Assembly (NCBI RefSeq): GCF_002571385.2
Contig: NW_019218296.1
Span: forward strand, 38,176 to 102,175
Direction of reading: 5' to 3'
DNA from: Stylophora pistillata
Taxonomy: Eukaryota
Length of the DNA stretch: 64,000 bases
Shown piece after piece: positions 30,460-33,145 of this stretch. Below the pieces are notes generated by a model. That model saw only the letters and a program-made list of their open reading frames with translations, searched no databases and was not told the origin of the DNA. Both the position numbers and the translations under genes were made by a program. Each line of letters begins with the position of its first letter. The first letter of the stretch is position 1.

Positions 30460-30946
30460 TCCTAAAAGCTTATAAGTTCCTACCCGCTCCACTTCTTGAT
30501 TTCCAACAGTTATAGGTCGTATTGCCGTAATCGAATTCTTCATAAAATTTACGTACATTTCTTTAAAATTTTTTGGGATTTAATTTCATCCTATGTTCTA
30601 TGCAATAATCATGGATTTCTCTGACAACTACATCTAGCATAGTAACGGAGTTCCTTGGAATGATCTCAAATGCAGTAGTGTCATCAACATACTTCGTACG
30701 CATATGCCAATTACTGAGTAGCTTGTTTATCATGACAGTAAAGAGCGTTAATCCGAGTTTTGTTCCCTGTGGGACGCCACCATTGACTTGTTTCCATGGT
30801 GACAGGGAGGAGCCAACGCGTACAGCCTGTGTCCGGTTGGTAAGAAAGGACCGAATCCAAAAAAACAGAGTTTGATCGATGTTGAACGATCTGAGTTCAT
30901 CTAACAATATTGAGTGGTCTATGATATCGAAACCTTTAGTAAAATC

Positions 30947-31531
30947 TTTAGTGTAATAGAAAATATCCGAGCCCCAGATGGGAAGTGAACCCACGACCCT
31001 CCGTGATCTAGTCGGATGCTCTAACCACTGAGCTACTGGAGACTCTATGGTGAGCAAGGGTCAATTTGTGGGCCTCGACTGGAACCGCATCGCGCGGCTA
31101 CACAGCCAAGTATTGGTAAGCACCTGTGAAAACTCACTAACAGCATCACGCTGTCACATTAAGGCATATCAAGATGCGGCCAACCAACCTCCAAAGTGAG
31201 CATGTAAAGATGAAAGAATTTTTAGTGTAATAGAAAANATCCGAGCCCCAGATGGGAAGTGAACCCACGACCCTCCGTGATCTAGTCGGATACTCTAACC
31301 ACTGAGCTACTGGAGACTCTATGGTGAGCAAGGGTCAATTTGTGGGCCTCGACTGGAACCGCATCGCGCGGCTACACAGCCAAGTATTGGTAAGCACCTG
31401 TGAAAACTCACTAACAGCATCACGCTGTCACATTAAGGCATATCAAGATGCGGCCAACCAACCTCCAAAGTGAGCATGTTAAGATGAAACAATTTTAAGT
31501 GTAATAGAAAATATCCGAGCCCCAGATGGGA
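30947..31531 (-). mobile_element. Tandem 2.13-mer of a 274-bp tRNA-like (SINE-like) unit
   Basis: Anchor CCGAGCCCCA at 30967, 31241, 31515; 12-bp TSD TTTAGTAAAATC (30935-30946, 31532-31543); minus-strand A box TAGCTCAGTGG and B-box-like GGTTCACTTCC. Confidence 0.85.
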
Positions 31532-33145
31532 TTTAGTAAAATCGGCAAAAAATATCCGAATAGAACAGTTACCTGAATCAATAGCTTCGTGTATAGCCTG
31601 CATTAAATAAATTTAGTGCGTACACTGTAGAGTGTCCATGACGTGAGTCGATAGAATCAAACACCTGATCTAACAGTCTTTTGTTTGTAAAACCCTCTTG
31701 TACTTTTGCTAAACAGCTTGTGAGTGCAATTGGTCTCAAGTCTGATTGAATGTTTTGAGGAGGGCAAACTTTAGGGACTGGTGAGATAATTGACTGTTTT
31801 AAAGTGTCAGGTACGAGACCTTTTCTCAGTGATTGATTGTAAATATCTTGAATCAATGATGCTAATTCGGGTGCAAATTGCTACAACAATTTGTTCGATC
31901 TTCCAACTGGTCCCACCGCTTTATGTATGGATAATTTGCGTAAGTCAGATGAAACTTCCTCTAAGGAAAACAAGCAACTCTGGTGGAATTACGTTGGGCG
32001 GAGTTTGGATTGGCGTTAAAGGTTCGAACTCTTGGGTTATACTAGTGAAGAAATCATTAATTTGAGTAGCTAGTTCTGCAGGACTGGTGATGACGTCACT
32101 TAGGAATTGATGGTACCGTTCCTGTTTACCAGATGTAACCTGCCCCGTCAGAGATATGATGTCTTTCCACCATTTCTTGGGGTTACTTTCAGCCAGACCT
32201 TTCACTTTGTTGTTGTAATAGGAGCACTTCGCTGTTTTAATAGCACCTTGGACTCTATTCCGCCAGAGTCTATAAATTGGCGATTCTTTCCCAAATTTAA
32301 TAAATGCTGCTTGTCGCTACTGAATCATAGATTTCAGTTTCACTGTGACCAAGGCTTATCGTATACATGGATTTTCACTGTTTTCCATGGAAAAAAGGTT
32401 TCAATAGCTGACTCTCCTAATGTAAGAGCGATTCCTGCCACGATACCGCGAGGTCGTCGTAAAAGGAACTCGGGTGTTGATTCGCACTTTAATTCGTTCC
32501 TTCGAAGTGGTGGTAACATTCTGATGGACTTGCCCTTTTCGGTTTGGAGATTGTTTGCCAGCTCGGACTCCCCTAAACCGGAGAATATCCAGATTTTTTT
32601 AATGTACGGAGCAAATTTTGGGACAGGTTGGATGTAGTATAGCGCCGTAATGAGAAGATGGTTTCTCGTCGATGTAAACAAAAACATCTCGCCGAGGACG
32701 GATGAAGAGTTTGCAAGGATCGAGAATTCTCGATTTCTGAGGGTCCAGGGTTCGTTTCCACATCCAGGAAGACTGTAAGATTGAAGTCTGGGTCTTTTCC
32801 AGGGATTTTAAGACATGTAAAGCCGCGTTTGGTGGATTTCAATCTCGGTTGACGGAAGCGGGTGAAACTTAAATGGCTTGTTAGCGTGTGTTTACAAGTC
32901 ACAGAAGATCACAACGTTTCAAAATGTTTTTATGATCAAATCCTTCCCTCTCTTTCGTTTCGAAAGATTTTGTATCAAATAAAATTCAATGAAAGAGAAA
33001 AAGGAATGTTTTCCGTTTTCAAATTTCTGTGTAGATCTGGAAATACTCACGATTGAATATCAGTAAAATATACGTATAGAGAACGTATGACGTCACTTAC
33101 TCAATCCGTCTTTAAAATACGTCATATATGTTTAAAGGTCTTTAA

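Follow-up and report, generated by a model that had tools for sequence, protein, structure and literature searches.

The window analysed here is a stretch of 64,000 nt of the coral Stylophora pistillata (contig NW_019218296.1). At 30935-31543 it carries an insertion of tandem tRNA-bearing units that splits the reverse transcriptase (RT) frame of a LINE. Coordinates are window positions; unit positions are counted in the tRNA sense, tRNA position 1 being unit position 179.

30563 to 32807, minus strand: part of the broken host LINE, its RT frame split by the insertion, outside the element
30935 to 30946, plus strand: target site duplication (TSD) copy at the 3' end of the element, TTTAGTAAAATC, 12 bp
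30947 to 31220, minus strand: 3'-most full 274-nt unit, with its 3' end inside the AT-rich linker
31221 to 31494, minus strand: second full 274-nt unit
31495 to 31531, minus strand: 37-nt partial unit; the 5' end of the insertion is tRNA position 60, in the hot spot 57-61 described below
31532 to 31543, plus strand: TSD copy at the 5' end of the element, TTTAGTAAAATC

Two 274-nt units and a 37-nt partial unit bounded by one 12-bp TSD (30947-31531) had been proposed from the sequence alone, and this structure was borne out by the coordinates and by comparison of the units, which differ at three positions plus one N. The restored frame that had been predicted upon removal (IFFADFTKGFD) was also recovered: without the insert and one TSD copy, the sequence reads ...IRIFFADFTKGFDIIDH... 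in frame, and Pfam calls the frame RVT_1. At this position, contigs of three sequencing runs (X8, X2 and X15) lack precisely 597 nt, which marks the site as empty in other copies of the host LINE. A single insertion event, as had been claimed, is supported. Elsewhere in the window were found a 22-bp tandem repeat at its start (1-302) and frames of TYW2/TRM5-type methyltransferase (4673-5530), FAD/NAD-binding (34463-36418) and leucine-rich-repeat (50967-52301) type.

On the minus strand, each unit holds a complete cloverleaf with a T-run and then an AT-rich linker behind it.

30969 to 31042, minus strand: tRNA-like cloverleaf, Ser-AGA-like, mismatched at 1:72 and 31:39 and followed by a T-run (ARAGORN, Rfam RF00005)
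31243 to 31316, minus strand: tRNA-like cloverleaf of the second unit (ARAGORN, Rfam RF00005)
30984 to 30985, minus strand: double variant at tRNA positions 58-59, common to 31258-31259 and found nowhere else in the genome

The two cloverleaves score 43.3 and 40.9 bits against RF00005, above the gathering threshold, and ARAGORN designates them Ser-AGA. The A and B boxes of the tRNA-like part reported by the sequence-only reading are present, the B box of the family being GGTTCAAGTCC, altered at 58-59 in the window copy; the extent given there has to be corrected, since ARAGORN and RF00005 recognise a whole cloverleaf and not boxes alone. The body region said to be closed by a GCCGCATC/GATGCGGT helix did not hold up, with a pairing probability of ca. 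0 in both linear and circular folds. The body is not unusually stable, 18 of 200 shuffles folding as well (z -1.5); the z value for the whole unit is -2.3, and unconstrained folding of the unit in context did not recover the cloverleaf. A motif scan of both strands of the dimer found no hammerhead, HDV or twister and Rfam gave tRNA only, in agreement with the initial reading; weak matches to twister-P1 and snoRNA were below gathering and either outside the element or due to chance. A functional tRNA gene array was rejected on the basis of the mismatches at 1:72 and 31:39, the dispersed, truncated and TSD-flanked copies, and the loss of U33 in two related families (D and E, see below). Coral tRNA gene counts are inflated because ARAGORN and Rfam call these units tRNAs.

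A DNA search of the genome returned at least 100 matches to this family (family A) on 40 contigs, and an exact 18-mer from the 3' end of the tRNA occurs at 209 places. The sample comprised 99 loci, 39 from the DNA-search list, which is biased to full units, and 60 representing all further places among the first 100 of the 209 18-mer matches; before ends were counted, 5 of 125 segments (unrelated matches, a segmental duplicate and an internal fragment) and then all gap-bounded ends were dropped. Most copies are 5'-truncated sub-monomers: in the 60-locus set (n = 71 segments), 60 are shorter than one unit, 9 measure one to two units and 2 reach two or more, and arrays of 8-10 units are present in the 39-locus set biased to full units. 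Among first-pass segments (n = 63), 10 extend past one unit and 2 past two, which matches a constant stop rate of ca. 0.006 per nt. Arrays of 10-20 units are longer than this rate would predict.

The 5' ends of family A are scattered along the unit (n = 105) with no pile-up at the Pol III start, unit positions 171-180 at the tRNA start holding 2 of the 105. By comparison with this scatter, 108 of the 115 gap-free 3' ends fall within a 48-nt AT-rich linker zone (unit positions 254 to 27), mostly beyond the T-run; one of the seven outlying 3' ends, that of a 6.5-unit insertion (L035), lies exactly at tRNA position 37, a predicted splice site. No poly-A, microsatellite or LINE-derived 3' tail occurs in the junction listings of family A. 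The lack of a pile-up at the tRNA start, together with the lack of a ceiling at one unit, indicates that these copies are not tRNA-headed SINEs and points to a template without a 5' boundary of unit length. Ordinary tRNA-headed monomers, which the sequence-only reading had named as the outcome that would speak against it, are absent from the 99 loci, where insertions reach up to 10 units. The window insert is one copy of a young, dispersed, non-coding tRNA-bearing retroelement family, and its RNA template was probably longer than one unit. The 5' junctions of five loci (L044, L074, L107, L108 and L118) contain short stretches of flank or element in repeated form, which suggests that priming restarted several times while the second end was being joined.

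The same LINE copy also carries an insertion of Penelope-like element (PLE) type, and a second one lies further downstream.

30156 to 30459 (30144 to 30471 with its 12-bp TSD): inverted Penelope/Poseidon-type insertion, in the same LINE copy as the tRNA element
30325 to 30359: minimal hammerhead core of that insertion
37911 to 38164: second inverted Penelope/Poseidon-type insertion

A 22-mer of the window Penelope element is found 1,443 times, and longer copies encode a C-terminal GIY-YIG domain. Its anatomy offers a direct comparison for family A, in which half of the gap-free loci (41 of 82) are flanked by TSDs of at least 9 nt (9-15 bp, with a median of 12; 7 of 410 in a mismatched-pair control). 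After 5 segments of family A and 4 of family B had been dropped, 18 of the 99 family A loci proved to be inverted with their 3' ends outward; both outer ends lie in the 3' zone in 13 of these 18, and 10 of the 18 pair one short end (262-269) with one long end (11-21), leaving a tail of ca. 15-30 nt. In a control set of 20 Penelope loci, 17 were inverted, 11 of which had TSDs of 11-15 bp with one short and one long end.

Two further tRNA-bearing families were found, the first of them with this anatomy too. Family B, a 251-nt unit with a Thr-AGU-like tRNA mimic, has 5,103 exact matches of a 20-mer; among its first 40 loci, 22 are inverted, 19 of them with short and long ends and a tail of ca. 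50 nt, TSDs occur in 22 of 36, and two fixed 3' ends lie ca. 50 nt apart (L187, L192-L231). Family C is a 279-nt sister of A with 352 matches of a 20-mer; it agrees with A in the tRNA part and over a large share of the body, and includes arrays of 12 and 20 units (L249 and L234). At L209, both arms of an inverted insertion are multi-unit (3.1 and 3.0 units). A copy of family A was found inside an inverted family B insertion (L064). The hallmarks described for PLEs include partial tandems, a tail on one side and 5' copies in inverted orientation, and non-autonomous multicopy PLEs are known (PMC8557442); animal retrozymes have been argued to depend on PLEs (bioRxiv 10.64898/2026.07.22.740005; PMC7229834). 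Judged by this anatomy, mobilisation of family A is probably of Penelope type, acting in trans through RT and GIY-YIG enzymes.

No tRNA linked to GIY-YIG was found at the best 30 of 90 matches, mostly of two families, apart from one unrelated copy on the opposite strand. Likewise, no autonomous PLE sharing the 3' end of family A was found among these best 30 of 90 matches or in the window PLE, three PLE families in all. The GIY-YIG loci themselves were discarded as autonomous partner since their 3' ends are of hammerhead type and without tRNA. At three loci (L036, L076 and L126), Penelope 3' ends adjoin the 5' junction of the tRNA element and may represent template-switch chimeras; no TSD encloses them and an N occupies the joint in L036, and they were not counted as evidence.

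The anticodon loop of both window units holds a palindrome.

31008 to 31011, minus strand: palindrome CUAG at tRNA positions 32-35 of the 3'-most unit (from sequence and covariation)
31282 to 31285, minus strand: palindrome CUAG at tRNA positions 32-35 of the second unit, predicted partner of 31008-31011 in a swapped fold (from sequence and model)
31006 to 31279, minus strand: predicted unit-length 'intron', from position 38 of one tRNA to position 37 of the next, corresponding to a predicted 274-nt circle

Because a MAFFT alignment across families had placed a gap inside the loop, counts were anchored on motifs. In a script count, for which family labels were assigned by regular expression with 15 matches unassigned and some B, D and E loci had been chosen for lacking T33, CTAG occupies positions 32-35 in 85/92 matches of family A, 31/34 of C and 81/94 of B, CCGG in 9/15 of E, and GCGC or GCGT in 6/16 and 5/16 of D; two ordinary SINE families have a palindrome there in 0/10. 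Family E is an older relative of B, with partial tandems and inversions among its loci, and family D a relative of A with the same leader and acceptor and a second copy at two loci. A search for tRNA-like sequences without U33 gave 306 matches; a hand count of the first 100 found CCGG in 29 of 51 E-type and GCGC in 10 of 19 D-type loops, the remaining tetramers being mostly explained by CpG decay. In both tetramer changes the invariant U33 was given up while the loop stayed self-complementary around one centre, which lies at 33/34 in five families. Since Ser-AGA and Thr-AGU tRNAs naturally have CUAG in this loop, only D and E are informative, with a rough chance of 1 in 27 given that both partners changed. 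Compensatory change within family B was also considered and rejected: 3 of 48 position-33 variants are CCGG, these three being of family E type, and the rest are single changes. A sixth family, F, is represented by one locus (L307:1321-1596), an inverted tRNA-like insertion in which the centre of an 8-nt loop palindrome is shifted by one base in the 3' direction; TCCGGA occurs at 33-38 in one ordinary SINE.

A palindrome at 32-35 means that two tandem units could swap strands, 32-35 of one unit pairing with 35-32 of the next. In silico, the swapped and local dimer folds have near-equal energies of -121.1 vs -121.9 kcal/mol for family A and -109.7 vs -109.3 kcal/mol for family B. Metazoan tRNA splicing needs a C32:G pair and 6-nt spacing (PMC6614914), and the modelled dimer contains a C32:G proximal pair, a distance of 6 nt between position 32 and the 5' cut, and an anticodon-intron helix of 4 bp. 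On the 3' side, the 31:39 mismatch leads at the splice site of family A to a 1x4 loop and not to a clean 3-nt bulge of a bulge-helix-bulge; the modelled helix is of 6 bp in B and E, and the bulge is longer in D. Fully paired helices are reported to reduce the yield of tRNA intronic circular RNA (tricRNA) (PMC6614914), and PLE hammerheads act as dimers in which a palindrome forms the cutting site when copies lie in tandem and not otherwise (PMC4209133).

These elements can be assembled into a route by which a circle might be made and copied. In a read-through transcript of two units, both palindromes would pair, and the 5' half of one tRNA would join with the 3' half of the next in a pre-tRNA that has an 'intron' of one unit at a site resembling a bulge-helix-bulge. 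The splicing endonuclease TSEN would cut after position 37, leaving ends of a kind that are RtcB substrates, and RTCB would close a unit-length circle. RT would then prime in the unpaired linker at a staggered nick, proceed around the circle, for 2.1 rounds at the window site, and often stall in the T-loop, possibly at m1A58. A circular RNA intermediate is an evenly balanced proposition, and its production by TSEN and RTCB, the best specific mechanism at hand, is put forward as a tentative and rather doubtful step. The inverted and tailed anatomy and the covarying anticodon palindrome were both absent from the sequence-only reading.

The unit or part of it is present in 13 runs on record as RNA, and contigs were examined from seven RNA runs plus one unlabelled run. 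In three of the seven RNA runs, from two studies (X1, X4 and X3), the unit assembles into a single closed-cycle contig (299-301 nt), with a linker variant that differs from run to run and with no cover of flank or host LINE; in the others (four of the seven RNA runs; X2, X5, X7, X8 and X15 with the unlabelled run) it occurs in several to many pieces. The closed contigs hint at a dominant circular or multimeric RNA, two forms that contigs do not separate, and may derive from library DNA. They would fit multimers equally well, which is one point in favour of the strongest alternative to a circle: a linear RNA transcribed through a genomic array, or RT jumping between monomers, again mobilised in the Penelope manner, with the palindrome acting as a kissing loop that dimerises the RNAs so that both DNA ends prime, and with neither circle nor TSEN cut. 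Arrays of 8-20 near-identical units could be the masters, inverted insertions need two template copies, a kissing-loop dimer accounts for palindromy without any cut, and family F keeps a palindrome in another register. This strong rival, a serious possibility if on balance an improbable one, encounters a T5-T7 run after every tRNA, where Pol III should stop upstream of the 3'-end region. The palindrome moreover keeps its centre at 33/34 throughout five families, which is the register required for splicing, and private variants present in all units would require a matching master, none of which carries the window variant.

Such variants also bear on whether the multimers were made at insertion or afterwards. 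The units of one insertion carry private variants in common: besides the double change at 58-59, multi-segment loci hold 34 variants shared by every unit that covers the site, 6 shared by a subset and 156 limited to one unit. This pattern fits a circle read several times and fits local duplication as well, the latter being favoured at L044, where three subset-shared variants are nested. A second alternative accordingly has at most one unit plus a partial repeat inserted, with multimers generated later by unequal recombination, so that the window dimer would be a local duplication. The very long arrays in excess of the stop-rate expectation can be counted for it, as can the ability of short-read assembly to homogenise arrays. 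It is improbable, given that segment lengths continue beyond one and two units with no change in the stop rate, that both arms of the inverted insertion at L209 are multi-unit, and that subset-shared variants are rare (6/196).

The distribution of 5' ends was further inspected for stops within the tRNA. Unit positions 235-239 (tRNA 57-61) hold 9 ends vs 1.8 expected from the rate elsewhere (Poisson P ca. 1e-4), for an interval that was picked after inspection and is adjacent to the 18-mer used for sampling. In family B, the excess of T-loop stops is not significant (4 vs 1.6, P 0.08; two duplicate loci left out), and family A has no m1A58 misincorporation signal, with 13 changes at A58 vs 9 at A57; most of the 58-59 double changes derive from sister family C, which has A59. 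The modification m1A58 blocks RT, and stops at this position, if real, would mean that the template was folded and modified as a tRNA. Eukaryotic tRNAs commonly carry it (PMC10275265). The 5' ends gather a second time at tRNA positions 29-30 (L050, L092, L097, L098 and L118), which counts against this reading.

Eight of the 105 5' ends of family A fall at unit positions 251-260, just past the discriminator, and this, with the full cloverleaf, is what would be expected if RNase P or RNase Z cut once per unit to yield monomers and circles. Both enzymes acting jointly would excise the tRNA, leader and trailer pair as an extended acceptor stem in families A, C and D, and the palindrome would be left unexplained, which makes such processing quite unlikely; the suggestion of the sequence-only reading that these enzymes are involved found no specific support, in contrast to tRNA splicing, for which there is support at the sequence level. 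Least probable of all is a permuted tRNA SINE moved by a LINE (CR1/L2/RTE/L1-type) with twin priming, since the A and B boxes, the LINEs present in the genome, and the 9-15-bp TSDs and 5' truncation common to LINE-type target-primed insertion have to be set against the missing poly-A or microsatellite tail, the missing fixed head, and inverted arms that overlap one another, each reaching its end in the 3' zone and with tails of different length, as at PLE loci.

These data are best explained by trans mobilisation of a tRNA-bearing family by Penelope-like enzymes, likely copied from a unit-length circular RNA, a reading to which we assign a probability of roughly 0.45. With regard to the initial proposal that one insertion copied a circular or multimeric RNA, the single event, the multimer family and the missing 5' boundary at one unit all stand; the circular form does not share this standing, as linear read-through or local duplication would explain much of the same data. 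Rolling-circle copying is a plausible proposal. In its fullest version, thousands of coral elements would be retrozymes without a ribozyme, in which a dimer-only splice site feeds TSEN and RTCB circles to rolling-circle copying by a Penelope RT, and this whole chain is speculative and would have to be considered unlikely at present. If true, a mobile element would have swapped a self-cleaving ribozyme for a host tRNA-processing signal, tandem repeats would naturally yield circular RNA through endogenous tRNA splicing, and selfish DNA would have a new means of spreading. Should the TSEN step fall away, these small abundant families, one with more than 5,000 exact matches, still record the start and stop points of a Penelope-type RT and offer a compact substrate for asking how tandem and inverted Penelope insertions are formed.

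No description of this class was met in the literature searched; Repbase, Dfam, subscription journals and supplements were outside that search, and the families may be deposited under other labels. Several known systems share part of its features. With tRNA-derived SINEs the coral element has in common A and B boxes, TSDs and 5' truncation, but its unit has no fixed head or tail and is circularly permuted relative to the insertion ends, a terminator immediately follows the tRNA, and copies include multimers and insertions with inverted arms. The Helenus and Cassandra TRIMs with Pol III promoters likewise combine a small-RNA-derived sequence within a repeated unit and tandem arrays; the coral element differs from them as described in PMC10886601 by the absence of an LTR pair, PBS/PPT or fixed ends and by TSDs of 9-15 vs 4-5 bp. 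The modelled dimer resembles intron-containing pre-tRNAs that give rise to tricRNAs in its C32:G pair, the 6 nt to the 5' cut and the 4-bp helix (PMC6614914), except that a complete repeat unit serves as the 'intron', which arises only where two copies lie in tandem, that the element is mobile, that 31:39 is mismatched, and that cleavage is predicted.

Likeness is also found with PLEs and non-autonomous derivatives such as MRC1/Chlamys, for which 5' truncation, partial tandems (pseudo-LTR), an inverted 5' copy, a tail at one end and head-to-tail multicopies are described (PMC8557442, PMC4209133). The TSD length equals that of the co-resident Penelope element, and the logic of a dimer formed by a palindrome is that of PLE hammerheads (PMC4209133); the coral tRNA element has no ORF or hammerhead, its core is tRNA-derived, and its 3' end is unlike those of the three PLE families inspected. 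Finally, animal non-LTR retrozymes are reported, in corals among others, as non-coding units of 150-450 nt occurring as monomers to multimers with TSDs of more than 4 bp, with a proposed dependence on PLEs and with circular intermediates closed by RtcB (PMC7229834; bioRxiv 10.64898/2026.07.22.740005). Circles are shown for the retrozymes in these two sources and predicted for the coral tRNA element. The family behaves like a non-LTR retrozyme yet lacks the hammerhead by which these are defined: a type I hammerhead is found there in every unit, whereas the coral units carry in its place a cloverleaf with a palindromic anticodon loop.
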